A stretch of 55,727 nt of DNA, filler included, from Jimgerdemannia flammicorona (Eukaryota): assembly GCA_003990765.1 (NCBI GenBank). It is 2 parts of 2 records of this genome, joined end to end, with 100 filler letters (N's around TTAATTAATTAA, not from the genome) between each part and the next. Parts side by side here need not be neighbours in the genome. Positions count along the whole stretch, not along the records: positions 1 to 27,814 come from RBNJ01000598.1; 1 more part is not named here. The stretch is one strand, 5' to 3'. This document shows positions 5,641 to 51,290 of this stretch, in pieces. Each line of letters opens with the position of its first letter. Within the stretch, counting starts at the first letter, position 1. The notes under the pieces are model-generated. The model saw nothing but the letters and a program-made list of their open reading frames with translations. It did not search any database and was not told the DNA's origin. A program made the translations under genes and the position numbers.

Positions 5641-5647
5641 AAGATGA

Positions 5648-6044
5648 TGTAATATTTTAGTGTAGTTTACTTCTTTTTCTTTATCTTTCCTCAATATTCT
5701 ACAATCTTTCAGTATTTTCTGAATACTTAGAAATCCGTTCTTGGTGCTGAGCATCCACTAGTACTTATTTAGCTAGTTACTGAATGTCCTGAAAGCTTGT
5801 AGAACTTCATTTGTCATCCTTGTCAAGAACTTTCCTCTTGGCATTTTTCTTTGATTTCTCAGATCTTTCTGGATCCTTCTTTCAGATCTTGTATAAATAT
5901 CTCCTTTGTTCTCATGAATAAAGTCTCAGAATGTTTTCTTCTAGAAATTCTTCAAGAATACTTGAATCCTTAAGTATCTTTTCAAGCTACTTAGAACTAC
6001 CAGAACTAGTCACTTCCTCATTTAGAAAAACTAGAACCATTACA
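5648..6044 (+). repeat. 5' LTR (397 bp)
   Basis: TGTAATATT...CATTACA. Contains TATAAATA and AATAAA and aligns with 16874-17268. Confidence 0.95.
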
Positions 6045-6046
6045 CT

Positions 6047-6064
6047 TGGTAGCAGTGGGTGGTT
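6047..6064 (+). promoter_or_regulatory. Primer binding site, tRNA-iMet-like
   Basis: TGGTAGCAGTGGGTGGTT, 2 nt after the LTR; resembles the complement of eukaryotic initiator tRNA-Met 3' ends (TGGTAGCAGAGGATGGTT type). Confidence 0.75.
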
Positions 6065-6159
6065 ACACCTAGCCTTATCAAGACATCTCTCAAGATATCA
6101 GTCACAACACTATGGAGGACAATGAGTGGAACCCTTCATACAGTACCTATAGTCCAGGT

Positions 6160-6690
6160 AATGCCTCATATAATTGGTAAGAAGAAGAGAAACAGCAAAA
6201 CCCTACTCAGTCAACTGGGGCCATTGAGAGTCTTTTGCAGACTACATTAGCTCAGATTGCTCAACTTTAAGAATGCATAAAAAGAAAGAAAAGCAAGGCC
6301 CCTACTCATACCTCTGCATCTCTACTGATATCAATATACCTGACAACAGTTACCATTAAGCCTCAGAAGTCTGACACTTTTGATGGTCAAAGAGGAAGAC
6401 TGTCTACTGATGCCTGGCTTTTCCGATTGGAGCAATATAGAGAACTGACTAATTTGGAAGAAGCAACACTAGTTCAATTTACTGCTACACTTCTCTGAGA
6501 GAATACTACAATCTGGTGGTGAAACCATATCCAGAATACCAGATTTGCTGACTGAATCAGGACCTGGAATAAATTCTCTGATACCATTCAAGGCCAATTC
6601 AAACCAGTCAACAGTACTAAGGCTATGTGAGACTGTCTGGCAAATGTCAAACAACTCAAGTCTGTATAAGTATACAATGCACAATTCCTA
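6160..6690 (+). pseudogene. gag, 5' part (capsid-like), interrupted by LINE
   Basis: KPQKSDTFDGQRG..DAWLFRLEQY..LVQFTATLL*ENTTIWW..TWNKFSDTIQGQFKP..*DCLANVKQLKSV*VYNAQFL, typical of Ty3 gag. Confidence 0.75.
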
Positions 6691-9600
6691 TCAATCCCCA
6701 TAGGGGAGCCCCTTCTCACTTCCTTATGAATAAAGATCACCCTCTCACCAATGACTCCAACTCTCCTGCCACTCTGTCCATAGATTTTCTCCACCAAGCA
6801 GTGCCTCTGACCACCCTACAGCCCCCAACCAAGCTACCAGCCTGTTAAGGTGTCTTCTATAAGATTCTGCCACTATAACAACCAGCTCTCCAAGCTCTGT
6901 CTCCTCTCATCCTCAAAAACAAATAGCCAGTGACTGGCCAGCCCCACCCAAATGGCCAACACCCAGCCTAAGGTAAGCCATTCCTTTCCTACCCCCCCAA
7001 CCAATTGATCTCTCAAGTCTGCCCACCTCTTCCATACCTCACCTCTGCTACACCTCACCCCCAAGTGGGCCCCAATAGCCCACCAAAAGTCCCTCAACAC
7101 CTTGCACTCTCCTAGCCAATATTCTGGCATCTGTATAAAGCCCCCTTCCTGCCCTACATTATGACACTCCTCATAGTCAAAGCAATCCCCTATGATAAGG
7201 TACTCTGAGCAGAAGTTGAGCATTACATTCCTCCTCAGCATGTGCCACCAGACCACTCAGTACTTCGGCAGTATCCACTTATGCATTGTAGCACTCTAGG
7301 TCCAAATACTCTGCTAGTTCTACTCTTCTCCAATTCCAACTCCTTGCCAACTGCTAGGCCACAGATCCTGGCCTGGTCTCCTTTGGTACTCCATTCTATC
7401 ATCAATGTCGAACTCAATTAAAGGAACACTACCTAGCAATATACTATCCCATCTCTACATCGCTGAGTCCCAAGCCACCTCCCTCTCATTCTCCTGCCAG
7501 CGAATACTAATGCGGTGTGCCCCCTCCACTATCCCCTATCAGAATCCTTTATATCACAATTGTTCAGTATTCTGAAGTCTAACCAATGAGAAGAGATTGC
7601 CAGTTGAGCCTCTCGGCAATATCTGCCTCTCCCAGATCTTCTGCAGCAGGGGAACCCAATTACCCCCTCGCAACTCCACCACCCTCTTTAGCCACCATAC
7701 CCTCAAGCAGTATAGTCATTTGGAAAAGTCCACCAGCCCAAGACCACCTCTCATCACCAGTAGGGACAAAGTCTCCCAACCAATCTGACTCCGTCTGCCA
7801 GCCCAAATCCATCCCTTTGCTATCTTCATTAATCTCTTCACCACCCAGGCTGGGAAGTCCAGATGATAAGCCAAATACCACAGCTTTGGCAGCTAATATA
7901 TATTCAAAATTGAGACCCACCCTACCAGAGAAAAGTGTCTTCCCCCCCAACCCCACAGGTCCTTCTCCCAGATTTCAATTCTCTGCTCCCACCAAAGCCT
8001 GGGCAGAACTGACCCATAGACTGACAAATAGATGCCCAAGTACCACACTGCCTCACCAGTGGGGAAAATTGTTCCAATAACTTCTCCTCCCACCAGGCCA
8101 TTGCCTAGTACCATTGTTTTACATTTGTGCTAATTCAACTTAGCCCCAGAGTTCTCCTCATACCACTCCACTGTCTTCTTGAGCTCCTCAACATCAGCAA
8201 TCGATCCCAAACCAACCACCATGTCATCTGCAAAGGCCCCAACTTTCCACCCAATTTCATAGATAGAGAGCCCCACTATCCTCTGCCTAATTCTGTCTAT
8301 TAGGGGTTCCAGGGAAAGGGCATACAAAATGGGAGACAGTGGGTCCCCCTGGGGCACCCCCCTACCCAGGGGGAATGCTACCCCTCTATGTCTATTACAT
8401 ATGAGTGTAGCCCTACTCCCTTCCAGTAGGCTGACCATTGCTGACCAAAATTGGCACAGAACCCCCATTCTATCTAATATCTTCGCCAGCCAGACTTGTC
8501 ACATCTGGTCATAAGCCTTCTCCTGGTCCAAGAAGACTAGATACCCATCCAGTCCACAGGCTCTTGCCTCTTCAATAACTCCATATACTTAGGCTGTGCC
8601 ATCCCTAATGAGCCAACCACCCACAAATCCCCTCTGCTCAACACCTATGACTTACTGGGCTACCTTCTGTAGCCTTGCAACCACCACCTTAGTCACCAAC
8701 TTTCTGTCCATATCTAGCAACATTATCGGCTACCAGTTCTTCCAATCCTCTCACCTTTCTTTATTCTTATAAAGTAGTATCACTAGCCCAAGATCCTGCT
8801 CCCCCACCCATCTCCCTGTCTGTAATATATAGTCACATAATGCCATCATCTCTCCCATCACACCTAGAACTCCAACCATTCGCTTCCAGAAGTCCCAGAG
8901 CAGACCATCCTCCCCAGGTGCCATACCTGGAGTTGTTGCAGCAAGAACCTGGTGGATCTCATCCTCCTTCATAGGCATTACCAGATCACCTAGCCCCTCT
9001 ACCTGTGGTGGGTGCCAATCCTCCAATGTTTGGTCAATGGCAGCAGCATCCACCCCACCCTCCTCCTCACTCCACAATCTACTCCATCGCTCCTTCAATG
9101 ATCCAAGAATGTCCTGCACCCCATGCATTAGCATACCATCCAAGTTAAGTACCCCTTCCCACCATTGCTGTATCCTTCTTGCCTTAAGGGCCCTTGTGAG
9201 AAATTTGGAAGACCTCTCCCCTTCCTCCAGCACCTGCCAATGAAGTCATGCTGCCAAGCTTTGCACCCTTACCTCTTTCTCTTCCAACAGCACCTGTTGT
9301 AGTTCTCCAATCTCCATCTTTGCCCTCATTACTCTCCAATCTTCTTCTCCTTCCAATATCGCCAGTCTTGCCTACTCCTCCAGAAGCCTAGTCAATCTAG
9401 TAGAAGTCCACTGCATTCTTTGCCTTCTCTGCTTCCCTGCTTCCTTGCCAGCCTCACTCCAGTAAATCCTGGCCATCTCTTTCATCCTCATCCACTAAAC
9501 CCCAATTGAGGCACCTTCCTGTTGCCAGTTCTCCACCCTCAACTAAATGTCTTTAGCCCACTCATCTCACCAGGACTTGTCATCTAACAAAGAGGAATTT

Positions 9601-12400
9601 AGATGCTAATATCCAGACCCATCCCCACTTCCCCCAAAGCACCCCTGTCCCAAAAGGCCCCAGTGATCTGACCATGGGCACCATTCCACCTCCAGCAACT
9701 TCCAAACATCTTGGCCCCAGCAGCTGGCCATCAGAATCCAGTCAATCCTTGTCCCCAGGCCCCCAGCCCAATGTGTATAAATCCTCCTATCTCCCCAGTA
9801 CTCCCTGCTAGCATCTACTAGCACACTAAATCTTTCTACTTCCTCCTATATCACCAGTCCCCTACTCCTGCTCTCAGCACCCCATCCTCTATCTGTTCTA
9901 TCTATCAGCATATTCCGAACCATATTGAAATCTCCCCCAAGTATATCCACCCCAGCCTCTGCAAGGATCCCACTCTCCTGGAGATCCTTCACCCAATCTA
10001 TATGCTCACTCTGTATGGCAGGGCAGTAATAGGAGCCAACTGTAACTGGCTCCCAGCCTACATGAATCCACTCACCCCAGACCAGTCTCTTTCCCCAGCT
10101 CCTCACATCTCTTATCTCCCCTCTGCCCTTTCAAACCAGAATCCCAACTTTGCCTTTCCAAATTGCTATGCCTCTCCATTCCTTTGTCCATTCCATCCTA
10201 TCAGAATCATCCTCACACCTGACATCCTGCAAGAGGAAGAGATCAGCCTCTAATCCCTTCAGCTAAGTAAAAATGTTCCTATATCTAATAGCACCCCGTA
10301 ACCCATTCACATTCAGAGAAAAAATGTTGGTTGTACTGTTCATAATGAAATACATTTTGTTATCAGTCGATCTCTACTGCTCCATGTTCATCACCTCCTG
10401 TACCATGTCCAGATTATGTTCTGCCATCACCTCCTCCTCTTTAGCTCTCTGAGCCTCCAATCCAGCCAACAGCTCATTCATCTCCCCATCTGTCTTCTTC
10501 TCAAACTCCTCCTGGTACTCAATATAAGCCTCCTGCCAAAGCTGCAATCTATGATGCTTATTCCAGCAGTATTCAGCCCTCTCCCCAGCAACAACTACCA
10601 TCTCTGCCTCCCGCTCCTTATCCACTTTATACCCTTCCTCCTTCAGATACACCGCAAGAATTTCTGCCTTCAGTGCCATCATTACTCCATCCCTCTACAA
10701 TATCTGCACCTAGTGCTCATCACCCATCATTCACAAGTCTACCTCCCTCAACTCTTCTACTGCCAGGTTATTTATCATCCTGCACATCCAAAGTAGGTTC
10801 CCCACCTCCTTCCCTCCAGGGGTCACCAGCCTCCCTCCATCCAGTATTGTGGTGTCAGCTCCAGCACTTGCAGTCTCATCCCACACCTCCAGGACATCCA
10901 CCAGTTCCTCCTCACCAGCTGCTATCCCATGTCCCCCATCGGTCACCTCTGGAACTCCAAATTTCACCCAATTGGCCCCCAGCATTGTCACATCCTCCAC
11001 TATCTTGTTTCTGGAAGCTGGGCCTCATCTGATAAGAGGAGAAGGAGTGGGAGAGTCCTCCCAGGCCTCCTCCCAAACCTCAAAGGTACTATCAGCATAT
11101 GGGTTATTAACCTTTGCCTCCTTCTCCTTCCCAGTCTCCTTCCCAGCATTCCCACCCCTCTCGCTAGCCCAGACACTCACTTTGGCCCCCTCCATGTCTG
11201 TCATCTTGCTCGCATCCTCCAGTGGTCTACCTCTCAGTTTAGCCAGCAGATTCTTCTGTCTCTTACACCCCTGAGCCCTTTCCTACTGTACCTTGTCCAC
11301 TCAAATCCACTTTCCATCCACTACCTCCAAGTGTGTCAACTCCACAAAGGCCTTCCAAGCCTCTGCTCACTGCTTCACAGCACCACTCAATTCTTCAAGT
11401 GCTTCCAATAAATCCTCTTCCTCCTCCTCACTTCCCTTCACCCTCATCACCTTATACAGAATCGCTCTCCAGACTATCACCAAAGGCCAGTCTCTCATCT
11501 TCCTGGTAGCTTCTTTTCCAGCCAGCTGAATCCTCACATCCATATCACCAGTCCTGAGCGAGGTCCCTTCCCAGACCCTGAATCTGATATCCACCACCTC
11601 TCCATATTCTGCCATGACTTCCTCAACTCTCTTTCTCATCTCCCCCGCTGTCACCATGGGCACTCCTTTCACCAGTAGTTGGACCACCCTTGGATCCCAT
11701 TTCAGGCACCATGCCATCGGAACACACACCTCCCCAACTATCAACCCAATCTTCAGTGTCTCCTCCAGTAGCTCAGCTTTCTCAAAACCCACCTCCACAC
11801 CCTCCAGTCCCTTCAAAAACTTCACTGATGTGGCTCCTGCCACCTGCTTAGCTATAAGCTCCAGCACCATTTTCGCTATCACCACTAAGCCCTGGAAGCA
11901 CAGTGTAACTGCGAATGCCAAGATTGATTTTTTGAGTAACAGAGCCACTGCCAGGCCCATCACACCATCCACCAAATCTCCTTGTCTTCTAAGCCTCAAC
12001 TACTCAGCCTCACCATCTGCCATCACATCTGGATTTTTTTCCAGATTGGCAGTCCCATTGCCATCAGCAGTTACACTCCTCTCAGCCGCTACTCCTCCAG
12101 CTCTACTGCCCCCCCTTCCAAGGGCTACTCCCCCATGCACTACTGCCTTCTCGGTCTCCTTGCCCTTTCTCAGCCAGCCCTCCAGCCCTGATGCCTGCTA
12201 TCTCCCCTTCACTGTCTCCACAAAGCTCACTCTTCTAGACTCTTGGCCTCTACCATTACCACCACCCCTTCCATGTCCTCCCACCAGCAGTCCCCTCATG
12301 GCCCCCCCTAGGCCCGGGCCCCTCCTCACCTGCTGTCATTCAAAAGCACTTAGGCCACCCTACTTAGTATATACCTCAGATTATCTGTTGGTCACTATGT
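6690..12400 (-). mobile_element. Non-LTR retrotransposon (LINE, L1/Tx1-like: ORF1 + APE-RT-zf ORF2), degenerate, 3' end missing
   Basis: ORF2 starts MNSTTNIFSLNVNGL (~10344). APE motifs GGDFN, RIDW, SDHW; RT motifs APGEDG, LDQEKAYD, GVPQGDPLSPILY, AFADD; C-terminal Cys/His region. ORF1 at ~12300-10370. No poly(A) tail at the left junction. Confidence 0.9.
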
Positions 12401-12439
12401 TCTTAGTCTCTTTTCTCCAAAAACGATATTGTAAGTACC

Positions 12440-12732
12440 TTCTAAAGATTGTATAACCTAAATAGTACTAGAGAAAGATGAAGAGACTGCCTTTCAATGA
12501 CAACCACAAAAGAGAGGAACCCAAAGTCAGAACTGTTGGACCTGCCCCCATGGACCTAGATACCATCAACAAGAGTAAGAAAGGCAAGCTTACACCCGAG
12601 GAAAAGGAGCATTTCAAGAAGACTGGAGCCTGCTTCTTTTGCTATCAGCCTGGTCACATTGCAACCAAATGTTCCAAAAAAACTGCTGAACCAAAGAGGA
12701 TTCTGGTCCTATCCAAAGACACTCAAGGTTAA
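12440..12732 (+). pseudogene. gag, 3' part with CCHC zinc knuckle
   Basis: PAPMDLD motif and CFFCYQPGHIATKC. Confidence 0.85.
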
Positions 12733-12759
12733 CCAGTTGAACAAGAAGTTGTACTCAAT

Positions 12760-13165
12760 TTCATATGAGTCAACCCCAAGGCCCAGATCCCTCAAGCATA
12801 GTCAGAAGGAGCCATTGGTTTGGACCTTCAAGTAGTATAACAAGTCACTATTCTGGTATATGAAAGAAGGCTCATTCCAACTGGCCTTTCAGTCGAAATC
12901 CCCAAGGAACATTATGCAAGGATTGCACCAAGATCTGGCCTCAGTTTCAAGCACTCATTAGATATTGATACTGGAGTCATTGACCCTGACTTCTGAGGCG
13001 AAATGCAAGTCCTGCTAGTCAACCACAAGAACCAACCATATACCATCAATGAAGGTGACAGAATTGCACAGCTCATTCTGGAGCGAGCCACTCTACTAGT
13101 CATCAAAGAAGTCACCAAGCTGTCTCTAACCAAGTGAGATCAGAAAGGCTTTGGCAGTACTGACA
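12760..13165 (+). pseudogene. dUTPase domain of the retrotransposon
   Basis: All five trimeric dUTPase motifs: AIGLDL, IAPRSG, GVIDPDF*G, GDRIAQLI, K*DQKGFGST. Confidence 0.92.
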
Positions 13166-13199
13166 AAGTTGCAAGCATAGCCAAGAACCAAGCCAATTC

Positions 13200-16100
13200 A
13201 ATGCTCATTTTCAAAGGTCTAGTCAAGGGACAAGAACTAGATGTTCTCATAGACAGTGGAGCTGTTGAGAACTTCATCAACAAGAACCTCATTAACAAGC
13301 TCAAGATTCTCACCAAACTAGCTGGCAAGAATGGTAGAGTTGTTACTGCAGATAGTACTACCTTACTAATCAACTCAATTGCTGCTAAACTCCCTCTCAA
13401 GATCCAGAAGTACTGGGAACATTTAGATTTTGAGATAGCACCACTAAGAGACCATAATCTGATCCTAGGCAAACTCTGGCTTACATGACATAATCCACAG
13501 ATTAATTGGATCAAGAATGAAGTCACCCTGATTCAGGATAGAACCAACATTACCATCAAGCCAGAAAAGACTCAGACAAGAACTCCAATTGCTACCCTTT
13601 TGGCAATTCAGTTCAAGAAGGCCCTCAAGAAAGCTACCTGTGCCTTTGTGGTACTGATCTGACTAAAGAAAGAAGACAAGAAGCTATTAATTAGTGAAAG
13701 TGTCAAGTTACTGCTGAACAAGTACAAGGATGTCTTCCTGGACAAACTACCTGGCCTACCACCTTCAAGAGACCATGATCATGAAATAAAGTTGGTACCT
13801 GATACAGCTATACCTAAGAAGAAAATGTACTACATGTCTCCACTCAAAATTGAAGCAGTCAAGAAGGAACTCAATGAACTCATTGAGCAAGGAGCTATTC
13901 AGCCAAGCAAGTCACCCTTTGGCTCCCCAGTCCTATTTGTTAAGAAAAAGGATAATACTCTGCAAATGTGCATAGACTACCAAGTACTCAACAAGATCAC
14001 AGTCAAGAACCATTATCCACTACCACTCATAGATCAAATCTTTGATACTCTTAAAAATACAAAGTACTTCACCAAGATTGATCTCACCTCTGAGTATCAC
14101 CAAATTTGAATCAAGTCAGAAGACATACCCAAGACTGCCTTCATGATACCTTTTAGACTTTATGAATTTCTAGTCATGGCCTTTGGTCTCACCAATGTAC
14201 CAGCAATCTTTCAAGATCTCATGCAAACTGTCTTTAAGGATCAGCTCTATATCTTTGTACTTGTATATATTGATGACATCCTGATCTTCAGTAGTACTGA
14301 AGAAGAACATCTCAAGCACATTGAACAAGTCCTCAAGATCCTCTGTAAGAACAAGCTCTATATAAAGCTCAAGAAATGTGAATTTTTTAAAGGTCAAGTC
14401 AAATACCTTGGACACATTATATTAGTCAAAGGAATTCAAGTAGACCCAAGGAAAATACAAGCCATTGAACAGTGGCCTGTACCAGCAAACCTCACTGAAC
14501 TTAGGTTCTTCCTTGGTCTGGCTGGATACTACTATCAATTTGTCAAGAACTTCTCTGGCATTACAGAATCTTTGACAAACCTCCTGTGAAAGGAACTCAA
14601 CTCTGATCTCTATGTCCCCTACATCTGAGATGCTTTCTGTCAACAAGCTTTTCAAGAACTCAAGAACTACCTGACCCATGCACCAGTCCTTAGAAATATG
14701 GACCCAAACTTGAAGTTCACAGTTACTATAGATGCATCCAACTTTGCCATTAGTGCAGTCATTTCTCAAGATGATGGTCAAGAACACCAATCTATTACCT
14801 TTGAGTCAAGAAAATTGTCTCCAGCAGAACAAAAGCTGGCTACTCACAAAAAGGAACTCCTGGCAATTATGCATGCCCTCAAGACTTGGTGACACTATCT
14901 AGAAGGAGTTGAGTTTGACATAATCACTGATCACAGGTCCCTTCAGTATATCAATACTCAACCAACCCTTTCTTGCCAACAAGCCAAGTAGAGTCAACTA
15001 CTTTAGACCTTTACCCTAAATATCATCTATAAGCCTAGTAAAACTCTAGTTGTACCAGATACACTTTCAAAGAGACCTGACCTTGCTGCAATTTTACAAG
15101 TTACTGTGGCACCTGAATTCCTCAATCAGATCAAGAAGACATATGAACAAGACTCTCTGGTTCTACAAAGGAATACCAAGGAATTCAAGGAAAAGTATAC
15201 TATCAAGGATAATCTCATATACTATTAAGACAAAGTATATATTCCTACCAACCCTGAACTATAGTATAAGATTCTTCATAAACATCATGACTCCCCACTA
15301 GCTGGTCACCTTGGAACTGAGAAGACTATCAAAAATATCCAACAAGACTACTACTGGTCAAACATGCTCAAGGAAATTAAAGAGTATGTCCAAAGCTATG
15401 ATCTTTACCAAAGAAACAAGTCAAGCAACCAAGCACTCACTGATCTTCTACAACTTTTGCCAATTCTAACCAAGAAGTTCAAACAAGTTACAATGGACTT
15501 TATTGTGCAACTCCCATGAACCAAAACAGGCTATGATACTATTGTTGTATTTGTGGATCATCTCACCAAGATTACAATCGCCAAGCCAACCATAATCAAT
15601 ACCACTGCCCTAGAAATTGCAAGAATCTTCTTCAAGACTGTCTTCCACCATTATGGACTTCCCTGAGTAATTATCAGCAACTACAACCCCAAGTTCACAA
15701 GCCACTTCTAGCAAGCACTCTTCAAGACCCTTGGAACTCAAATTGCTATGTCTACTGCCTTCCACCCTCAAACTAATGGACAAACTGAGCGAATGAACAG
15801 AACACTTGAATAAATGCTCAGAAACTATATGTCTTATAAGCAAGATGATTGGGACCACTATCTGACCTATGCCAAGTTCACCTACAATAACACCACCCAA
15901 TCATCAACTAGCCTTTCTCCATTTCAGCTACTTCACAGTCAAAACCCCAAGACCCCTGCAAGCCTAGTCTCATTTTAGCAATCCAGTCATACATAAGTCT
16001 CCACAGCTCAGAACCTTATTGACAAAATAGATTCCCTTCTCAAGATCGCCACTATGAACCTGCAAAAGGCTCAGCAACATTAAGCTAAGTATGTAGATAA

Positions 16101-16560
16101 GAAGCAGCAAGATATCATATACAATATTGATAATATAGTTCTACTCAAAGCTGACAACATCAAGGCTCAATCTCAAGTCAACTACCAGTCAGCCAAATTC
16201 CAGCCCAAGTATCTGGGCCCCTTTGAGATCACTGAGCAAGTCTCCACCTGATCTTACTGTCTCAACTTGCTAACAACTATGCATATACATCCAGTATTCC
16301 ATATATCACAACTCAAGGCCTGGAACCAGTCACCTCCATATCCTAGCTGAATTCCAACACCATCAGCACCAGTGATAGTTGAAGACCACATTGAGTATGA
16401 AGTTGAGAAAATCTTAGACAAATAAGTCTGGTACTGTTGCACAGAATACCTAGTCAAGTGGATGGATTACCCTGAATATGATGCCACCTGGGAACCTGCC
16501 ACCAATCTCAAGAACTCTCAAGACCTCATCCAAGAGTTTGAGCAAAAAGGAACTCATTAA
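13200..16560 (+). pseudogene. pol: aspartic protease, RT, RNase H, integrase, chromodomain
   Basis: [108 protein letters not shown] (16390-16560). Confidence 0.95.
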
Positions 16561-16860
16561 CTGTCCATGAGATTCTCCCCTTGGATAGTAGACAACATAC
16601 TGTGTTGATCAGGCACATTAAGCATCAGGGCACTCTAAAAGATATAGCATCAGAAACAAGAGATATAGGAGAACTCTATAAATCTTGCAACCAATGAGGT
16701 TCAAACCAGTTCTCATCTGATCAAGATGATACTTTGGCTCTCACCTTATACAAGGATGGCCAGTCCTTGCCAATGAGCCAATATATTTTATTTAAAGTTT
16801 CTTTTAGTCTTATTTTTTATTATATATAACTTTGAGAATTCAACAAGGATGTTGATTCTT

Positions 16861-17268
16861 AAGGAGGGGGAGATGTAATATTTTAGCATAGTTTACATCT
16901 TTTTCTTTATCTTTCCTCAATATTCTATGACCTTCCAGTACTTTCTGAACACTTAGAAATCCTTTCTTGGTACCAAGCATCCACTAGTACTTATTTAGCT
17001 AGTTATTGAATATCCTGGAAGCTTGTAGAACTTCATTTGTCATCCTTGCTGAGAACTTTCCTCTTGGCATTTTCCTTTGATTTCTCAGATCCTTCTGGAT
17101 CCTTCTTTCAGATCTTGTATAAATATCCCCTTTGTTCTCATGAATAAAGTCTCAGAATGTTTTCTTCCAGAAATCCTTCAAGAACACTTGAATCCTTAAG
17201 TATCTCTTCAAGCTACTTAGAACTACCAGAACTAGTCACTTCCTCATTTAGAAACTAGAACTGTTACA
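16861..17268 (+). repeat. Polypurine tract (16861-16873) and 3' LTR (16874-17268)
   Basis: AAGGAGGGGGAGA followed by TGTAATATT...CTGTTACA and then the TSD GATGA. Confidence 0.95.
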
Positions 17269-18547
17269 GATGAGCTAAATTGATAAAGGAGAATTGAGAG
17301 AGAGTTATGGGAAAGAAAAAGCAAAGACTCAGGGATAAGGTAAAGACTTGAAGAGGAGAAAGAGAATAGTCAGCTGAAGAAAAAGGAGAAGATAAAAGAG
17401 CAATAAAAAAAGAATAAACTCAAAAGTTTGAGACTAGCAACTGGGAAAGACAAAGAGGGATAATATGAGAAACTACTCTGAGTATATCAGAAGTGATGAT
17501 GGAATCTGAGAAGAGACAGAGATACTGGAGGAGAACTATACTAGAGGGAAATTTAAGAGCAGAAGGCCTTCCTTTTCTCTTGGACTTTTTTTGAAGGGAG
17601 TGAGATAGACAATCTTGAGCAAACCCCATTGGAGTGCCAGACCTTGTGACCATAGGCCTTTGTATAGCCCTTGCATTCAGGAGCATAGGGAGAGAGAGAG
17701 GCAGAGGAACTATTAGAGATAGAGGGGGAAGCAAGTAGTAGAAAGAGTCATGAAATGAGAAATACCACCATAGAGGTAGACCAACTTAGCCAGATACCAG
17801 TAGGTATGGTGGAGGTGACTGGAGCAGACAGCATATGGCCAAGCCTCAACAGGGTGAAAACCAAGAGTATGGCCATGCTTGGGGGCAGAAAGGACTGAGA
17901 AGGAGGTCTTGGTGGGGGGGAGTGATCAAGAAGAGGCTGATAAAGCCTTGTTTGACTTAGTACAGATCTTGGTGGGGTCTTGATGATAGTAGTGGTAAAG
18001 GAGCAAACTTTGGTACAGTGGTGGTACAAGCCTCAGTATGAATAGTCTCAGAGATCAAAACCTTGGAGAAGGCAGGCAGGGGAGCAGTAGTGGTAGCACA
18101 AGTAGTGATAGCAGTATATGACCTTTTCTACTCATAGAGATAAGTGACAAACAAGATACTAGTAAGGAGAAAATAATAAATAGTATCAATATTAGCAGTA
18201 GTAGAGGGAATGTCAAGAATATCAAAGCTATAGAAGGGAGCAACATCTAGAAGGCAAAAGGAGACAAGGGTTACAAAGGAGATATAAGTATATTGGAAGA
18301 AAGTAGAAGCAGTAGCAGCAGTAGCAGTAGTAGTATTGGTAGCAATAATCTTGGTAGCAATAGAGATAGTATAAATTTCTTCAGAGAGGACTTAACAATA
18401 AGCCTCAGGAAGAACAGAGTAGTAAATAGCAGATGGAGCAATAATGTTGATGTTCCAGCAGAGATGAGCCTCCTTGGTAGAGAGAGCAAGGACTAACCAG
18501 AACTAAGAAAAGAGTAGATGATCAGAGAGATGAAGGTCCAAAAGAAG

Positions 18548-20619
18548 TGTAAGAGGGTTACTTTTTAGGGTAACCTTTACGTAGTTCTGGAAGGGTTTAC
18601 TGGATATTCTGGATGTTCTGGAAGACCGTTTTCTTATGGTCAAGATCAATTTCGTATGGAGTATGTCCTCTACACTTATTGATTTCAAGATCGGGTTGAC
18701 GTCTCAACCAAAGTCCTTTTTTGGACTAGTTCTGGATGTTCAGGATTTTCTGTATTTCAGGAAGTTCAAGAAACTAAGACCAGCTTAGTTGAATCGGCAT
18801 ATCGCTGCAGACAATACCCAATTAGGAAATTTCGTGACGGGGTTAGGAGTAGGACCTAACAGAGAGCGGATTTACTTAAGAGTGGTTTGTGGGTTATGAA
18901 ATAGGTTTATTCGCTATTCATGATATTGCTATACTAGGAGTAGTTGTGTGAAGGGATATTGTGGGGAAGTATTCAGGAATGTTCTTGTGTGTTTGATTCT
19001 GTTCGAGTCTGAGATTCTGAGGTCTGGGGGAGGGGGTATTTATACTAGTGAGGGGCTATCTGGACTAGGCTAGATATGGATGTAGCACTTAAGTGCTTTG
19101 CTGAGTCGGAATGTAGTCACGTAGTACAAGTGTGATCTGACATGTCAAGAGATCGTCTGACTGCTGAGTCAGTTCACAGTCACGTCGTACAAGGCTAATC
19201 TATCTATACTATGACTGCTAGACTATTTATGGTTTAGGCACTATCTGGGTAGTCTTCGATGACATCACCATCGATTGTATCATCTCTGATGAAGTAGTCG
19301 TCTAGGAAGAGTGGTTTGCGGATTACTTCTCCTTGTTGGCTGAGATAATAATACATTGGAACTTCATCTCCATCCCACAGGATAGCATCATCTGTTTTGT
19401 ATGCTGGATAAGGTGTTGCTGGGCGAAGGATGGGTGTACTGTCTTCGCTTTCATCGGATTCGCTATCTGCGTACCTTCTATAGGTTATAGCACTATGAGT
19501 CGTGGGGTTGTAGTAAGCTGGCGGCTGTGGTTCAAGTTGCTTGTACTCAGGTGGTGGTGTTGTTGGTTCAATCTCGAGGGTTGTCTGGAGGTACAGGTTG
19601 TGTTCTCCGGTCTCTTCATTGTAGTTGAAGTAGTCGGGGGTGAACGCGGGTTGGTATTCGTGCCAGTGGTCATTGTCCCAATAAGTCTCATATGTGGTTA
19701 TGAACTGTTGTAAGTTCATCGGCAAGGTTGGCGGAGTGATCAGAGTTGGCAGAGATCCTTGGCTAGAGGTCATGTCGGCGTCAGAGGGATCATTGTCTTC
19801 TGCTTCATCTTCATCGAAGTGGATTATATCGTAGACGTCCTTCATGGCATATCCGACTTGAGGCATTTGCAGGATATGGTCATCGGGGTGCAGGAAGGTT
19901 CTGTCTGTGGTTTCGACATACTCGAGATACTTGTGGTTGATTTCTTGTATCATGTCATCGATTTGGCCGTAGGACAGGGTAGCAACCATTTCGCTGGTAG
20001 TGACTCGGAGGCGGGGAATAAAGGTATTGTACTCATAGAAGAGCTCTCGATGTTTGCGGGTGATGAGCTTCTGGTGTTGAGACATCTGGGTAATGTCTGT
20101 ATTATGGTGGTGTTCGACCATGTCTTCCAGGAGGCAGCCGATCTGGTAGTAGCTTGAGATTTGTCCGATTCGGTGGGCCTCACTAAGCATATTCAGGGCA
20201 TTCCATCGGGCTTCCACGAAGTAGAGGGGTGCCAGGCTATGGATGTTCATGAGGGGCAGAGGGGGTGTGGCTCGGTTGATAATGGCATTCCAAATGTCAG
20301 CGCGGATGCGGTTGTAGATCTCAGTGGTCATGTTTGTGTGTTTGGAAGTTGTGGTTGTTATTTGTTTTGGTTCTCTGACTTGACGCGTCTCGGTGCTCAG
20401 TATATATCCATTTGGTCCTGATTGGTAAGGTTCCGTTTGTATAGATCTTGTGTTCCATGACTTCATATTGACTCAGCTTTGTGCGCTGTGACTTCGGTTT
20501 GACTCAGCTTTGTGATCAAGCAGGTGATTTCCAGATTTGTTTGGAGGTCGTGTGTGATTTCAGTGGCTTGTTCAGAGGGTGACGTATAATTTCGGTGGCT
20601 TGGAGGTTGTGCGCTTACA
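18548..20619 (-). mobile_element. Solo-LTR-like insertion (2072 bp) carrying an ORF
   Basis: Termini TGTAAG...CTTACA with 5-bp TSD AGAAG (18543-18547 and 20620-20624). Minus-strand TATAAATA (19037-19044) and AATAAA (18906-18911). No internal repeat, gag or pol. CpG-rich, unlike its flanks. Confidence 0.85.
19234..20466 (-). CDS. Intact orphan ORF (410 aa; ~365 aa if the start is the Met at 20331) in the U3 region of the solo LTR
   Basis: Longest uninterrupted ORF in the window. Helical-looking N-terminal half (YYQIGCLLE..RKHRELF..IPRLRVTT) and an acidic, Pro/Tyr-rich C-terminal half. Confidence 0.7.
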   Translation of the reverse strand: MKSWNTRSIQTEPYQSGPNGYILSTETRQVREPKQITTTTSKHTNMTTEIYNRIRADIWNAIINRATPPLPLMNIHSLAPLYFVEARWNALNMLSEAHRIGQISSYYQIGCLLEDMVEHHHNTDITQMSQHQKLITRKHRELFYEYNTFIPRLRVTTSEMVATLSYGQIDDMIQEINHKYLEYVETTDRTFLHPDDHILQMPQVGYAMKDVYDIIHFDEDEAEDNDPSDADMTSSQGSLPTLITPPTLPMNLQQFITTYETYWDNDHWHEYQPAFTPDYFNYNEETGEHNLYLQTTLEIEPTTPPPEYKQLEPQPPAYYNPTTHSAITYRRYADSESDESEDSTPILRPATPYPAYKTDDAILWDGDEVPMYYYLSQQGEVIRKPLFLDDYFIRDDTIDGDVIEDYPDSA

Positions 20620-20765
20620 AGAAGGGAGAGAATGGTAGATAAGATATAAGTCTCAAACAAGATTATAGTAGAGACAAAAGCAGAGAGAGGAAGAGGAGAC
20701 AAAATCTCATCTATAATCTCATCAATAGAGATAGAGGCCCTGAGGACAGATAGAATAACAGTAAA

Positions 20766-21560
20766 GAAAGAAGGCCCAGTAAGAGCCAGGAGCATAAACT
20801 CAGATCTGTAGTCAAAACAAATAGAAGATATATAGAAGAGTATATATAAGAGAGATGAACAAAGAAATACATTAGCCATTTATTGCTATACAAAAAGTAT
20901 AGTCTTTATATATAAAATATGAGATCCCAAAAGAAAAGATGTACTATAATATAGGAGTAACTGAATTAGAAATTACATGACTACTAGAGATAAGTAGAGA
21001 TAAAGAGAAAGCCAATCTCAGTTGCAGGATAAAAATCATAAATAAATACCAATAAACAAATCCAAATCAAGATTAAAAAACATCTACAGACTCCAGAGGG
21101 GTGAGCACAAGTAAGGGGTGAGACCAAAATAGAATAAGCCATAGTGAGCCTGAGCAAAGCAAGGGGTCAAAAGCAGTAGAGAGGAGTAGAGTAAAGGCTG
21201 AGACCCCAGAGCAAGCATGAGATCTCAGAGGAAATAAGAATGTTTTTTAATCTTAATTTAGATTTATTTTGTTTGTATTTATTTATAATTTTTATCCTAT
21301 AACTAGAATTGACTCTCTCTTTATCTCTGCTTATCTTCAGCAGTCATATGGTTTCTAATTTAGTTATCTCTATATTGTAGTGTGTCTTCTCTTTTGGGAT
21401 CTCATATTTTATATATAAGGACTATGTTTTTGCATAGCAATAAATAGCTAATACATTTCTTTATTTGTTCTCCTTATACATGCTCTTCTATATATCTTCT
21501 ATTCACTTTGACTATAGCTCTGAATTCATGCCCCTGGCTCTCACTGGACCTTCTTTCTCT
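20766..21560. repeat. PLE 5' pseudo-LTR forming a palindrome: arm 20766-21084, loop ~155 bp, inverted arm 21239-21560
   Basis: 21239-21560 is the reverse complement of 20766-21084 and of 3437-3753, e.g. GATTAAAAAACA versus TGTTTTTTAATC. Confidence 0.9.
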
Positions 21561-22904
21561 ATGACTTAATAAAAAAGAGTCTCATTACTAACTTTCTAGT
21601 TTTAGTAGCTAATATTATTTCCTCTTTTCTTTTATTTTTTATACTAATTAACTACTAGTTATTCTTTTTTTACTTTTAATATTTTTCTTAACTACTGATC
21701 TAGTTCTAGAATTTCTGATTATATCTCTCTATCTCTGATCTATATTCATCATCTGATCAGTTATCTAACTCTCTCTTTTATCAATACTATATATACTCCT
21801 CTCTTTATTACTAAAGATCTAGCAATCTCTCTCTTTTTCTCTATTACTATATATGTATTAATCTCTACTTTCTCTGTATTTCTCTACTCTTTTTAGTATT
21901 TTCAATACTCACTATAATCATATATTTCTTAAAAAAGTCTAATCTAAGACTTTTTCTTACTAATCTCTCTAAACTAGATAATTTCTAACTTATTATACTC
22001 TTAAAACTAGTTGAAAGTAAAATAAAGTAATATATATTAATCAAAAGTTCAATTTACTCTAAATTTAATATATCTAAGTAAATAAAGTAAAAACTATTTT
22101 CTAATCAATCTTATAGTTAATATTAAATCTAATTATAAAATTATTAATACTAGATCTAACTATAGAATTATTAATATTAAATTTAATTTTAAAGATTAAT
22201 GAGATAAAAAAAACTAATATAAAAAATTAAAAAAATTTATCTAAATTTTAAAGATCAGAAGAAGAGTATAAAATATAGTAAAAAAAGATATAATAAAGTA
22301 TTAAAATAAAAGATAAAATATTAAAATGAGCAATATAGAGTAATATTATAAAATGAGATATTAAAGTAAGTAGTAGAAGAAAATATATAAAAATAGATAA
22401 TATAGCGAGATATATTAAAATAGATAATAGAATTAAGATGGGTAATAAGACAAATTTTCAGAAAATGGCAATGAAATAAGCAGCAGAATAAGGCTTTAGA
22501 ATAAGCAATGAAATACTCCTGAAATCAGCACAGTAAACTAACATAAAGTACTAAAAAAAAAAAATTCTAAATTTAACATAAGGATAAATAGGTTTCATAA
22601 CAAAACACACTGAAATGGGCGCATGTTGGAATAAGTGGTGAGGTTAGAATGAGCGGTAAGGTTAGAATGAGCAGTGAGGCAAGGTGTCAGAAACGAGCAA
22701 TGGAATGAGCGGCCAGGTGAGGCCAATGATGCTATTAGCCGAAGAAATGTGCGCCACATTTACCACCACCTTTGTCAGTATGTCATGCAGCGGATGTAAG
22801 CGATATGAACATTCCGACAGATTCTGAAATGTACTGCAAATCTTCGCTTGCCGGAGTGGACGGAAAAGGCCGACTGTTAGCGAGAAGCAATGAGCTCCTG
22901 TTAA

Positions 22905-23185
22905 GGAGGCTTGCCGCTGATGAATCCTCATTCTTGTTGATGGAGGCTCATGATGAAAGCTTGTTGCTGATGGATTCTTGTTGATGGAGGCTCGTCTATG
23001 ATGGATCTTCGTCGCTGATGAATCCTCGTCGATGGAGGCTTGTTGCTGATGAATTCTCGTTGATAGAGGTTCATTGATAGAAGCTCGTCACTGATGGACC
23101 TCATCAATAGAGGCTCGTCAATGATGGATCCTCGTCATTGGATCCTCATCACTGTTGATGAAGGCTTATCGCTGATTAAAGCTCA
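22905..23185. repeat. Degenerate minisatellite of mixed 14/17-bp units (GATGGAGGCTCGTC / GCTGATGAATCCTCGTC)
   Basis: Repeated units are visible directly. Confidence 0.75.
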
Positions 23186-23770
23186 TCAAAGCTGAGTCCT
23201 CTGTTTATGTTCAGATAAAGGTATTTTATAAAAAAAATATATACTATCATTTTATTTGCAACAAATACTGATAATGACCTCTACTCAAACTTATAAAAAC
23301 TCATTACTACTAGAAACAATAAGTATTCTCTATAACTGCTCTACTTTGAAACCAAATAATATAATAACAAATAGCCTATTATTAACTATGATTCTGAAAT
23401 TCTATATATAAGATTATCTCAAGATAACAAGCTCACCTATATATTAGACAAATAAATAAACATTCACGTAGATCTATAAAAAGCAAAAACAAGTCTATAA
23501 ACACTGAGCAGAGTCTTGCTTTTTGTCTTGTTTGAAAATTTCACCTACAAAATACTAACTTTCTTCCACAACAATGAAAATCCCGTCCGTGTTTATATTT
23601 TATCATCATCTCATCTACCACAATCATTGGCTGATTTCACCTTTGACCAGCAAATCCAATTAGCTGGAGATTTCTCGAGAACTCACCCAGCCCAATAACA
23701 AATTTTCGGCAAATGCACTGTACCATAGATGCCAATGTTGAAAATATACGATATTTTATTAAATGCATAA

Positions 23771-26712
23771 CTATTGATGGAGTGCTTCTTCAATTTTCGT
23801 CACAACCTCTTGGGCGGCAAGCGGAATTCTCGTACCTGTTATAAGAATAGGTTCGAAGACAAAGGAACGTGTGTAAGATCAAGCCTGCGCTTCCTTGTTG
23901 GCCAGCTCCATGAATTAACAAAAGGCCTCGCTCACCCGGTCCAAACACCGACGTCACACCAGCTTCTTTCAGGAAGGAGTAATCCTGGGCTGGAATCACA
24001 CCACCGCAGATGACGAGCTTGTCGCCAGCGCCAAGTTTACGAAGCTCGTTAATCAGCGCCGGTACTAGTGTCTTATGCCCAGCGGCTTGCGACGAGACAC
24101 CGACAACGTGAACGTCAGCGTCGATGGCCTGGCGGGCGACTTCTTCAGGAGTCTGAACATGATTTTTAGGTAGAGTTGAGACAAAATGGTAACGGTTACA
24201 TGTTTCACAAAAGTCTTGCAAATTGATGGAAGAATAGTGCAACAGGACGCACCTGGAACAACGGCCCAACGTCGACATCAAAACCCAGATCCGCAAAGCC
24301 GGAAGCGATGACCTTTGCGCCGCGGTCATGACCGTCTTGACCCATCTTCGCAACAAGAAGACGAGGTCGACGACCTTGATTTTTTGTGAATTGCTCGACG
24401 AGGTCGAGTGTGCGCCTGACTTCGTCGCGGTCGCCATATTCGGACCTGTATGCACCCGAAACAACACGCGAAGTTGGTTGATGACGACCCCAGATCTTTG
24501 TAAGCAAGAGGATGATATAAGATCGAGAAAGCAATCCAAAATTAGATAGATCGAGATACCGCAACGAATTGCGTTGAGTAATAATGAAATCCAATTCACA
24601 ATTACCTTCTCTAGCGAGTACGAAATCTCACCAACAGTGCACCGCGCTTTAGCAGCCTATTCATGCACGCCAAATGATTACGGAAACGTGCGAGACCGAG
24701 CAAAGTAAGTTCACGTAACAGAATAACATAACATCGTAATGGTAAAGGTGCTTACCTCAATGGAAAGGGCCAATAGATTGCCGTTGCCAGTTTTTGCGCT
24801 CTCAGTAAGCGCGTTGAGACATTCCTGAGCCTAACTCAAATATAAGATGGTGGTGATATCAGGAATTGCCGCATGTGTGAGATATCCATTCGTGCGGAAA
24901 TGGGGTATATTTTCAAGGCGAAACGCCAAAAAGAAAGAGGAAGGGAATAGTAAACATCGGGGGAGAAACAGATAAAGAACACAAACCTTAGCCTCATCAC
25001 GGTTCGCCTTCACCCCTGTGATCCTCTTAATCTATAGATATATAACATTGGATAAATAGACATAAAAAGCAAGCACTTGAAAATGACAATCTAAGTGAGG
25101 ATAACGTCATAAGCAGTTCAATCTTACTTGGGAGTCCCGCACGGCCGTGTTATCGATGGCAAGGACTTCAACGTTTTCTTCCTTCTCCAGGCGGTATTTG
25201 TTCACACCAACAATGGTTTCTACGGTGTCGTTTTCAAAAATGGGCATCACTCGTCAATGGGTGATTCACACCATCCCTAGTGGAGCCATGGCCGCTGTAT
25301 CCACCCTCAAAAGTATATATATATATATATATCTGCCCACAAAGCATTAGTCGTCCTAAGTGCAATTTACTCACGAAAAATACATACCCTGTTCGGAATC
25401 AATCCTAGCCTGACGCTTCGCCGCGGACTCCTCGATCTTCAACTTGGGCATCCCCGTTGCGACTGCCTTAGCCATTCCGCCCATCTGCTCGATTTCGTCG
25501 ATCAGTTCCTTGGCAGCATCGTGGATCTCGGCCGTCAGCGACTCCATCATGTAAGAACCCCCCCATGGATCGGCAACCTACGGAACAGAGAAAAGGGAAA
25601 TGGAATCAGGGGATTCGCTGGCGACTTCTTTCACCTCCGCTCCGCTTGGGTCGTGCAATAATTATTAATGATGTCTCCTTCTCTATCACTTTAGAACATG
25701 GCAGCGGATCAGTGACAAGAGCTCGGAGCATCCAGCGGACATTGCCACTCTACCTTGGGAATCCCTGCCTCCTCTTGTAGAATCAGTTGGGTATTCCTCG
25801 CAATTCTGGCCGAAGATTCAGTCGGTAGGCCAATGGCTTCATCGAACGAGTTAGTATGCAATGACTGGGTGCCGCCAAGAGTGGCCGCCATGGCCTCAAC
25901 TGTGGTGCGAATGATGTTGTTGTACGGCTGCTGTTCTGTGAGTGACCAACCAGAGGTCTGACAATGCGTGCGTAGAAGAAGCGATTTCTGAGACTTTGCT
26001 TGGAAATTTTCTTTGATGAGAGTTGCCCAAAGCTTGCGCGCAGCTCGCATTTTTGCAATTTCCTGATGAGTTGGAGGGAAAAATTGATCAGATATTGTCA
26101 ACACGGCATCGGTTGGGTCTTTTTAAACCAAAACGTGAGGGTTACGTCACGATCATTCATTCAATGGAACAATCGAGACATACCATGTAGAAGTTCATGC
26201 CAATAGCCCAGAAGAACGACAAACGTGGTGCAAATTCGTCGACTGGCATGCCTGCCTTTATTCCTATAAGGATGTATGGAGTAACGAAGTGAGTACCGCT
26301 CACACCATACATCGGTGAATGTCATAACTATTTACTCTCCGTCCGAAAGTCTCATAAAAGAGTAAACATGACATTGATATGTCTCGCGGCCGCTATGTAC
26401 ACACCTGTTCGTACATACTCAAGCCCATCTGCAATGGTAAATGCCAGCTCGAGCACGGCATCCGCGCCAGCCTCTTGCATGTGGTAACCTGAAATGGAGA
26501 TCGAGTTGTATTTGGGCATGTTCTACACAAGTAAGTGGGATGAAATTAGAGCTACGCCAACGATCGTCTTCAGCGTTGAGGGAGTTACATAAACAATTGT
26601 CTAGGCTTTATGCCACATGAGCAAAAAATTTCCACTCACTTTCGACGTGAAGGAGAAGATATCTCCAATGAGACGCATGCTGGGCTCCGGAGGGTAGATG
26701 AACGTGTTTCGA

Positions 26713-26744
<32 letters not shown>

Positions 26745-27780
26745 TGTGCCCGCAAGCTCCTTCAAGTCGGCGCCTTGCTCGAGACCGGCAACAATATACA
26801 TGGCGAGGATGGGCAGCACGGCGCCATTCATGGTCATGGAAACAGACATCTTGTTCAGCGGGATGCCTTCGAATAGGATCTTCATGTCCTCGACGGTATC
26901 GATAGCTACGCCGGCCATGCCCACATCGCCCACCACGCGTGGGTGGTCCGAATCGTAGCTGCGCCACATAATTGCATTGGCAATAACGACGAGTTAAGTC
27001 GGCAGGATCCTTATATATAACTCAAACCCCCCACGCTCGGAATCCGTAAAAAACAAGGACGAATAATGTTCTTACCCACGATGTGTGGCCAAATCGAACG
27101 CAACCGAGAGACCCTGCTGTCCGGCCGCCAAATTCCTCCGATAGAAATGATTGGATTCCTCGACAGTACTGAACCCAGCGTACTAGAGTCACGAACGTGG
27201 TTTGCGTTGAATGAGCGGGAACATACCACCAACGTCAACCTCGAATCACTAAGCCAAGAAAATGAATTTGGGTAACGCACCTGACGAATTGTCCATGGCC
27301 GAGCGGTGTACATGGAGGCGTATGGTCCACGCGTAAACGGGAACTTGCCCGGTATCTCGTCGTCAATTTCCCCAACGTCGGCCTTCGTATACACGGGCTT
27401 AATGTCGAGGCCCTATAATACACAGCAAAGCGGCACGTATATGATGGTTCAGAACACGCATAGTGATCGGCGACCAAGCAAGGGATACGGTACACGTACC
27501 TCGGCGGTATGCCACGTCAAGACTTTCACAGGGTCTTTGCCTTTCAGCTCCTTTGAGGCCATAGCGGCCCATTCCGGATGAAGTGACACCTTGGGGCCCT
27601 TGGCTGTTGCAAAAGCCTGGCAAGGTCCCGGGGATTCGTGACAAAGTGCTGTTAGAAAGGTGTTGTATCGGGACTGCGTCGGGTTGAACAGGTTGGGCTG
27701 TAACATACCCTTCCGTACACGCTCGCATATCTGTTGAGAGTGCGAAGCGAATGTTTCTTCACAGCAGTAAGGTATTGCAT
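23771..27780 (-). CDS. MUT: Methylmalonyl-CoA mutase, adenosylcobalamin-dependent, mitochondrial; 16 exons, apparently intact
   Basis: Spliced protein [30 protein letters not shown].. with [90 protein letters not shown] and the B12-binding [10 protein letters not shown]. It ends GTRIP..EEALHQ* (stop 23771-23773). Fifteen GT-AG introns traced. Confidence 0.97.
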
Positions 27781-51061: not shown

Positions 51062-51290
51062 ATGTTGGCACGCTCTATTCTCATGCTTGTGGTCCTGGCC
51101 GCAAACAAATCAATGCGTGGTTCATCGATGGTTCCACAGACAAATACATTCTTACATCGCGCTACTACAGCGATACCAAATCCCTCCCGAAAAGGGTTAA
51201 ACATTACAAAGTACCGAACTCGAAATCCACTCGAATTCGAACTCGACTTCCCCTCTAACACTCATAGAATAGAAATTAGAGCATAGTTAT
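51062..51290 (+). pseudogene. Deleted paralogue of the small secreted protein gene
   Basis: Starts MLARSILMLVVLAA, then frameshifts and lacks the central exon/intron segment. Confidence 0.75.

Follow-up and report, generated by a model that had tools for sequence, protein, structure and literature searches.

The window analysed here is a stretch of 55,727 nucleotides from the fungus Jimgerdemannia flammicorona (GCA_003990765.1), made of two joined parts, the first of which (positions 1 to 27,814) comes from RBNJ01000598.1. Between a decayed Ty3/gypsy retrotransposon and a methylmalonyl-CoA mutase gene it holds a 2,072-bp repeat unit (18548..20619, minus strand), delimited by its ends, by sequencing depth and by its CpG content, and oriented on the basis of TATA boxes and RNA depth. 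We favour, with moderate confidence, the view that this unit, which would lie in minus orientation, is a young solo long terminal repeat (LTR) from a high-copy family of LTR retrotransposons and that it carries a gene in its unique 3′ (U3) region. The family is probably Ty3/gypsy-like.

The unit begins with TGTAAG (18548-18553) and ends with CTTACA (20614-20619), which amounts to a 6-bp terminal inverted repeat (TIR). Directly outside both ends stands a perfect 5-bp target-site duplication, AGAAG, that can be read off the DNA at 18543..18547 and 20620..20624. The TG..CA ends and the perfect duplication described in an earlier interpretation made without database searches (the sequence-only reading) are thus borne out. 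A search for terminal direct repeats within 18548-20619 (seed 8, minimum length 12) returned none joining the two ends. The unit is therefore not itself a small two-LTR element, which rules out a small non-autonomous element of the kind known as terminal-repeat retrotransposon in miniature (TRIM) or large retrotransposon derivative (LARD).

Four sequencing runs (X1, X4, X19 and X24) were aligned to 18000-27700, with depth expressed as the summed depth of contigs, which are strandless, in bins of 324 nt. X1, a soil metagenome, placed 3764 contigs on this region. Its summed depth ranged from 996 to 2747 across the six bins inside the unit and dropped to 0.29 in the bin to its left and to 24 and then 4 in those to its right. 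The profile of X4 had the same shape, with 43-151 inside the unit and 0-1 outside. Soil metagenomes contain parts of the 2,072-bp unit, and the depths of X1 and X4 delineate, at the resolution of the bins, a dispersed repeat family with shared boundaries. The unit is a discrete integrase-type insertion that belongs to a high-copy family with exactly these edges. That much of the solo LTR proposed in the sequence-only reading has held; a full-length parent did not turn up among the contigs searched. The family probably numbers hundreds of copies, a rough impression, as summed contig depth is not copy number. X24, raw reads of organism A, gave 17 partial reads on 18000-27700 and yielded neither a copy number nor junction reads. 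Within the window, no second copy or relative of the unit was detected by a repeat finder, by blastn with word size 7 or by tblastn.

On its minus strand the unit contains an open reading frame (ORF) at 19234-20466, with 410 codons from the first ATG, as had been claimed, and 412 from stop to stop. The window contains no longer ORF; in 500 mononucleotide shuffles of the unit the longest ORF did not exceed 242 codons. Upstream, the frame ends at an in-frame TGA (20475-20473) that lies 144 nt in from the edge of the unit, and hence the gene is wholly internal to the unit. Both the ORF and this stop fall on the upstream side of the candidate LTR TATA box, the border between U3 and the repeat (R) region being a proposed one. 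In one respect the sequence-only reading has to be corrected: the conserved protein begins at Met46 (20331) and not at Met1. This start follows from the variants between copies, as all four listed for codons 1-45 are non-synonymous, and from a metagenomic homologue, P0002, of 128 amino acids and 93% identity, which starts exactly at Met46 and reaches residue 173 of the 410-residue frame. Moreover, Met46, in the context ACAAACATGA, is the first AUG after a TATATA box, with no ATG between them. The conserved coding region thus spans 365 amino acids from Met46 to a TAA (19234..20331), a delimitation that draws on the variants, the homologues, the shuffles and the position of the first AUG after the TATA box. 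The in-frame extension of codons 1-45 (20332..20466), which lies upstream of, or across, the TATA box, is probably untranslated.

Several lines of evidence indicate that this coding region is under constraint. Variants were counted among those listed, namely 40 of 419 differences between copies (38 of them in the unit) and 12 of 27 insertions or deletions (indels; 9 in the unit). From Met46 to the stop, 18 of the 28 listed variants are synonymous, and their distribution over the three codon positions is 9:1:18 (chi-square p=4e-4). Among transitions alone, 16 of 23 listed are synonymous, compared with an expected fraction of 0.33 (binomial p=3e-4). With 229 synonymous and 866 non-synonymous sites, the listed variants give a rough pN/pS of ~0.15, so that the ratio among copies, for which a value near 1 would have spoken against a maintained ORF, appears far from neutral. 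Indels largely spare the ORF: seven of the nine listed in the unit fall in the 686 bp outside it, and the other two form a +1/-1 pair, 3 nt apart on one contig, that restores the frame. An expressed contig (record 10 of X19) differs from the window copy at 44 of 329 positions (13%), and 15 of its 20 listed differences are synonymous. A second homologue, P0001, a fragment of 247 amino acids, is 66% identical, has only two in-frame gaps and shares the C-terminal end. The synonymous excess, the avoidance of the ORF by indels and this distant relative with the same C-terminus together show the ORF to be a maintained gene, held by purifying selection across diverged subfamilies.

We consider it quite improbable that the ORF is a host gene fragment, or a gene captured by one LTR subfamily, that is useless to the element and seemingly constrained through recent common ancestry. 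Either origin would agree with the orphan character of the protein and with the X1 DNA depth over the ORF bins, which is ~40% of that over 18648-18971 and allows for LTR relatives lacking the ORF segment. However, the constraint extends over the 13% nucleotide divergence of the X19 contig and the 34% amino acid divergence of P0001, with frame and stop retained, and the gene has its own TATA box and first-AUG geometry inside the unit. Furthermore, no host paralogue was found among 1.84 billion cluster representatives.

These representatives, together with a word index of 5.8 billion proteins, were the scope of the homologue search, in which near, shorter and all-length searches returned only the two metagenomic fragments P0001 and P0002. 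Neither form of the window protein is present in the protein collection by exact look-up. The 365-residue protein has an isoelectric point (pI) of 4.39 and a net charge of about -41, and Tyr, Pro and Asp are frequent in its C-terminal half. Helices are predicted at about residues 48-186 (410-residue numbering). A helical domain followed by an acidic tail had been claimed. The predicted helices and the overall acidity agree with this description; the C-terminal half, however, is at least as conserved in comparison with P0001, for instance around LQQFITTYETYW and YQPAFTPDYFNYNE, and is thus not a mere acidic tail. The ORF protein matched no family in Pfam (E<=1), PHROGs or NCBIfam and had no usable match in the ESM Atlas; the best hit of a profile search against the PDB was an unrelated kinetochore protein (E=0.2). 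AlphaFold2 models were of low confidence, with a predicted local distance difference test score (pLDDT) of 32.6 for the whole protein and 51.8 for residues 46-200, the region singled out for modelling in the sequence-only reading. Foldseek with the latter model gave no match at E<=0.001, and the models are too poor for inference. Neither Pfam nor the PDB profile search nor Foldseek, the last on the low-confidence model, linked the protein in sequence or in fold to Sag or another retroviral accessory protein.

Given its pI and the lack of a Pfam domain, the protein appears unlikely to be a transposase, an integrase or a nucleocapsid. The same pI, the lack of Pfam, NCBIfam and PHROGs matches and a TIR of 6 bp also speak against a TIR DNA transposon with a recognisable transposase of its own, although a wholly new transposase is conceivable. 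Very tentatively, the protein may be a trans-acting accessory factor that aids the family rather than a transposition enzyme. The net charge might favour a protein- or chromatin-binding role, for instance as an activator or anti-silencing factor, over binding of DNA or RNA, a preference that we put forward with little confidence. The same holds for the transactivator or anti-silencing function suggested in the sequence-only reading, to which the acidity and the predicted helices could at best point.

Two promoter-like modules accompany the gene. A TATATA box (20401..20406, minus strand) lies ~70 nt upstream of Met46, with no intervening ATG, and ~45 nt upstream of this box stand two tandem 31-nt motifs that share a TGACTCA core (20448..20509, minus strand). 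TTGACTCAGCTTTGTG is present twice, at 20468-20483 and 20499-20514. Downstream of the ORF, a second motif pair (TGCTGAGTC..GTCACGT..ACAAG; 19099..19201, minus strand), inverted relative to the first, precedes by ~55 nt a TATAAA box (19039..19044, minus strand) found by motif search, the candidate LTR promoter. The TGA[CG]TCA core occurs at 20469, 20500 and 19165, and presumably represents an AP-1/Gcn4-like site. Motif search also located an AATAAA hexamer (18906..18911, minus strand) and an AATAAG hexamer (18675..18680, minus strand). All signals named in the sequence-only reading, i.e. the TATA-like box of the ORF, the duplicated motif, TGAGTCA at 19165, the LTR TATA box and the poly(A) signal, were recovered, with coordinates that differed by at most 1 nt. 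The unit can thus be read as holding two promoters of like design, each a TATA box preceded at ~50 nt by a motif pair. The inverted arms between the two pairs, 30-34 nt long and 70-74% complementary, raised the alternative of a nested DNA transposon bounded by them. This was discarded in view of their length, their degree of complementarity and their conserved bZIP-like cores, and the motif pairs are probably better read as promoter elements than as transposon arms.

RNA from the LTR-type promoter region is abundant. X19 contains a 2,788-nt methylmalonyl-CoA mutase contig from which 14 introns have been removed and which has 0 mismatches in the listed exon pieces, showing that X19 is RNA of the organism in the window or of a near-identical strain. 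Its summed depth reached 4393 over 18648-18971 (minus strand), compared with 47-211 over the mutase gene. This RNA-abundant segment, the candidate R region, closely follows the TATAAA box at 19044-19039 when read on the minus strand; it contains both AATAAA and AATAAG, the latter near its end. Transcription from an LTR-type promoter is thus supported, with a start site that is placed by position. The proposed borders on the minus strand would put U3 from about 20619 to 19010 and R together with the unique 5′ (U5) region from about 19010 to 18548. As to a transcript of the ORF, for which the sequence-only reading had suggested that RNA be checked, ORF-covering contigs do exist (records 9-11 of X19, depth 3-19), all from copies 8-13% diverged from that in the window, so that expression of the ORF is low. 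No RNA gene was detected: Rfam models matched nowhere in 18000-21200, and the tRNA scan was negative. The predicted RNA fold of 18640-18980 does not stand out, with z scores of -0.9 for the minus and -2.1 for the plus strand.

Since the contigs are strandless, the unit might also be a solo LTR in plus orientation or one transcribed from another start, with an ORF antisense to or downstream of LTR transcription instead of a U3 gene. The box at 19037-19044 reads TATTTATA on the plus strand, and the RNA-abundant segment has no comparable RNA on either side. In plus orientation, however, the RNA-rich segment would begin ~100 nt from the LTR edge, and the sole plus-strand TATAWA in the unit, the palindromic box at 20401, lies ~1.4 kb downstream of it. 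U5 would then measure ~1.6 kb, which is atypical. On the minus strand, in contrast, the order of motif pair, TATA box and RNA-rich segment with AATAAA and AATAAG is coherent, and we regard the plus-strand arrangement as highly doubtful.

The reading as a minus-oriented solo LTR with a U3 gene has to accommodate several observations that weigh against it. Orientation and U3/R/U5 borders are read from hexamers, 324-nt bins and strandless contigs. The U3/ORF bins are nearly free of RNA (0-19) compared with the putative R region. Active full elements would carry U3 at the 3′ end of their genomic RNA, so the low U3 signal points instead to short LTR-internal transcripts or to relatives that share only this segment. 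The X1 DNA depth, too, is ~2.4 times higher over 18648-18971 than over the ORF bins. This depth pattern would fit LTR subfamilies that share R-U5 and differ in U3, or short transcripts internal to the LTR. Four X19 RNA contigs leave the unit at 18548 with a consensus agreement of 0.57 and reveal no dominant internal neighbour. The variant counts, taken from listed differences, are indicative rather than a full dN/dS, and the function of the protein has no support from homology or a confident fold. Finally, no full-length element and no partner with a primer-binding site (PBS) or polypurine tract (PPT) was found in the metagenome, viral or prokaryote contigs. Metagenome contigs gave one pattern with 74 stretches against a three-sequence alignment and 36 stretches against the single protein, none of them confirmed as related loci; of 13 stretches in viral contigs and 10 in prokaryotic genome contigs, likewise none was confirmed. 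These collections do not include the source eukaryote, and a parent missing from them says little.

Some of these observations would be expected of a complete small mobile unit that is not an LTR at all, be it a non-autonomous element mobilized in trans by an integrase of LTR or Ginger-like type or a new TIR transposon with this ORF as its single gene. Consistent with this possibility, the unit is seen in these data solely as an isolated block of 2 kb whose family edges are sharp, has a 6-bp TIR and a 5-bp duplication, contains a single maintained ORF and lacks a full-length parent in the contigs searched, and its RNA covers mostly one sub-segment rather than following a U3-R pattern. However, a protein with a pI of 4.39, predicted to consist mainly of helices and disorder and matching no DDE, integrase or other Pfam family, is a poor transposase candidate. 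In addition, cDNA usable by an integrase ordinarily carries an LTR at either end, and terminal direct repeats are absent from the unit; the parent searches carry little weight, given the collections they covered. The ends of the unit, moreover, match those of LTRs nearby. The decayed Ty3/gypsy element at 5646-17268 (plus strand), 1.3 kb from the unit, has ends of the form TGTAAT..GTTACA and a GATGA duplication and hence shares with the unit TGTAA..TTACA termini and a 5-bp duplication. Its LTRs are 399 bp long, non-coding and stripped of CpG, and have no sequence similarity to the 2-kb unit. An integrase that uses TGTAA..TTACA ends thus acts in this genome. Taking together the ends and the duplication, the lack of internal direct repeats, the layout of promoter followed by transcript, the acidic protein and the ends of the gypsy neighbour, we favour a solo LTR and consider a self-contained small element unlikely. 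An acidic protein without a transposase or integrase signature implies that the unit cannot plausibly move itself.

The base composition of the unit bears on its age. It contains 72 CpGs (observed/expected, o/e, 0.73), and the adjoining 2 kb contain 0 on the left and 1 on the right; the CpG-rich unit between CpG-free flanks reported from the sequence is real. Across the window, CpG o/e is ~0.9-1.25 in genic parts and 0-0.17 in transposon blocks (1-22 kb and 38-46 kb), where TpG and CpA are raised. Other copies of the unit have decayed. Relative to the window copy, C>T and G>A changes account for 114 of 153 places in X19, 191 of 316 in X4 and 159 of 263 in X1, compared with 25, 82 and 76 for T>C and A>G, respectively. 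CpGs of the window copy were struck at 9 of the 38 listed variant places, although they make up 7% of sites, and the loose ends of X19 contigs at 20471 and 20511 are recognisably unit sequence altered by G>A and C>T. The decay of other copies, including expressed ones of the same organism, indicates that the family does erode and that the window copy is merely little eroded. The LTRs of the gypsy neighbour, in comparison, are 7.5% diverged, retain 1 and 0 CpG and differ by 28 substitutions, 26 of them transitions. The unit is therefore much younger than this neighbour, in agreement with its perfect duplication and open frame. The proposal that recent insertion alone could account for CpG retention is thus favoured, and youth would suffice without protection from methylation. 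An APOBEC-like strand bias was discarded, as the plus-strand excess of G>A over C>T matches the G-over-C composition of the unit. In a study on Rhizophagus irregularis (Glomeromycotina), CG methylation is described as bimodal and as covering most, though not all, transposable element loci (PMC8647823). The CpG mosaic of the window fits this pattern, provided that the source organism behaves alike.

The surroundings of the unit are a mixture of old repeats and genes. Within the gypsy neighbour, whose LTRs are 92.5% identical, a PBS-like TGGTAGCAG and a purine tract AAGGAGGGGGAGA are recognisable. Its domains run in the order CCHC, protease, reverse transcriptase, RNase H and integrase, with the Gag CCHC at ~12.6 kb and the remaining domains at 13.1-15.5 kb. 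The ~6 kb between its 5′ LTR and gag (~6.1-12.4 kb) differ strongly in composition, with a GC content of ~0.49 and a GC skew that falls to -0.5, and probably represent a nested insertion. A plus-strand C-rich repeat family occurs at 9586-10349 and 44947-45714 with 71-79% similarity, its long ORFs containing no Pfam domain, and the blocks that hold it (7-12.5 kb and 42-47 kb) both have a strongly negative GC skew. An old CpG-free repeat, 83-86% alike, is present at 3414-3921, 20760-21251 and 21240-21573; the latter two form an inverted pair ~140 bp from the solo LTR, with the third copy 17 kb to the left. The window also contains reverse-transcriptase remnants.

To the right of the unit, an imperfect tandem array of GATGRA (22952-23198; period 14-17 nt, 9 overlapping 42-nt copies) separates the CpG-free block from the methylmalonyl-CoA mutase gene (23279-27617, minus strand), which has 14 CT..AC introns (GT-AG on the minus strand) of 87-176 nt. 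Compared with the window, the spliced mutase contig has 15 extra nucleotides behind 23619 and lacks one at 23295, both differences lying within or close to the 3′ end of the gene. Just upstream of the gene a run of N (88 in total) from 27814 onward reflects an assembly gap or masking. Further along, direct repeats of 51-77 nt with 84-95% identity, spaced 1229-1515 nt apart at 50621-52931, suggest a tandem duplication of a ~1.2-1.5 kb unit with normal CpG content. At 54208-55362 the minus strand carries a long exon that belongs to an animal-type haem peroxidase (Pfam An_peroxidase, E=1e-52), and its closest named relatives, at 43-45% identity, are from Glomeromycota. Together with the presence of parts of the unit in soil metagenomes, this points to a host among the early-diverging fungi that is associated with soil or roots.

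If the unit is a solo LTR, its history could be reconstructed as follows. A retroviral-type integrase would have inserted the element, as the TG..CA ends and 5-bp duplication, its observed signature, suggest, and recombination between the two LTRs would then have deleted the internal part. In the remaining LTR, the downstream promoter at TATAAA (19044-19039) would give rise to the abundant R-region RNA, whose abundance is observed and whose start would lie near this box. The upstream promoter at TATATA (20406-20401) would serve a self-contained gene located entirely upstream of the LTR promoter, i.e. in U3. Such an LTR-resident gene would be present twice in each full element and would survive solo-LTR formation. 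It is conceivable, and we propose it tentatively, that the family keeps a self-promoted, selected gene inside its LTR whose protein acts in trans on the two promoters or on host silencing.

LTRs are usually regarded as control regions without coding content, and a solo LTR as a dead scar; both views would have to be revised if an LTR contained a maintained gene. Each of probably hundreds of solo LTRs would stay a potential live gene, and gene dosage would scale with the number of LTRs and not with that of intact elements. The gene would outlive deletion of the element, and repeat masking would hide it from annotation. For early-diverging fungi, the protein would offer a tractable candidate regulator or counter-silencing factor encoded by a retrotransposon, and a sag-like arrangement would exist outside retroviruses. 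Should the unit not be an LTR, it would be a small mobile element of unknown type and at least as interesting.

Additional ORFs confined to one lineage are found in other LTR retrotransposons as well. In bdelloid rotifers, LTR retrotransposons are reported to carry extra ORFs of unclear function between pol and the 3′ LTR, which are described as internal and additional to ORF1 and ORF2 (PMC5408684). The ORF of the unit, in contrast, would lie inside the LTR. A crude phrase matching in open-access full text found protein ORFs internal to LTRs only in mouse mammary tumour virus (MMTV) and other retroviruses. A self-promoted gene in the LTR of a non-viral LTR retrotransposon has a counterpart in Cassandra, a TRIM whose LTRs each contain a 5S RNA gene that is transcribed independently. 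The cargo of Cassandra is an RNA gene of RNA polymerase III; that of the unit, in which Rfam detected no RNA family, is a protein gene of polymerase II type.

Among retroviruses, nef of human and simian immunodeficiency viruses overlaps U3, and the accessory genes tas and bet at the 3′ end of spumaretroviruses extend into it. In these foamy viruses the accessory genes are driven by a second promoter regulated in common with that of the LTR, an arrangement that may parallel the two similarly built promoter modules of the unit. However, tas/bet and nef merely overlap U3 and start internally, whereas the gene described here is wholly inside the unit and has no homology to them. The classic LTR ORF is sag, the superantigen gene in U3 of the MMTV LTR. 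As is proposed for the unit, MMTV has a complete ORF of 300-400 codons inside the LTR upstream of the LTR promoter, which is thereby duplicated in each provirus. In contrast to sag, the ORF of the unit encodes an acidic protein without obvious membrane anchor and bears no sequence relation to it by Pfam; the host is a fungus, and the element would be endogenous, an LTR retrotransposon and not an infectious retrovirus. By analogy, then, MMTV sag would be the nearest known arrangement to that of the unit, with tas/bet and nef as partial parallels.

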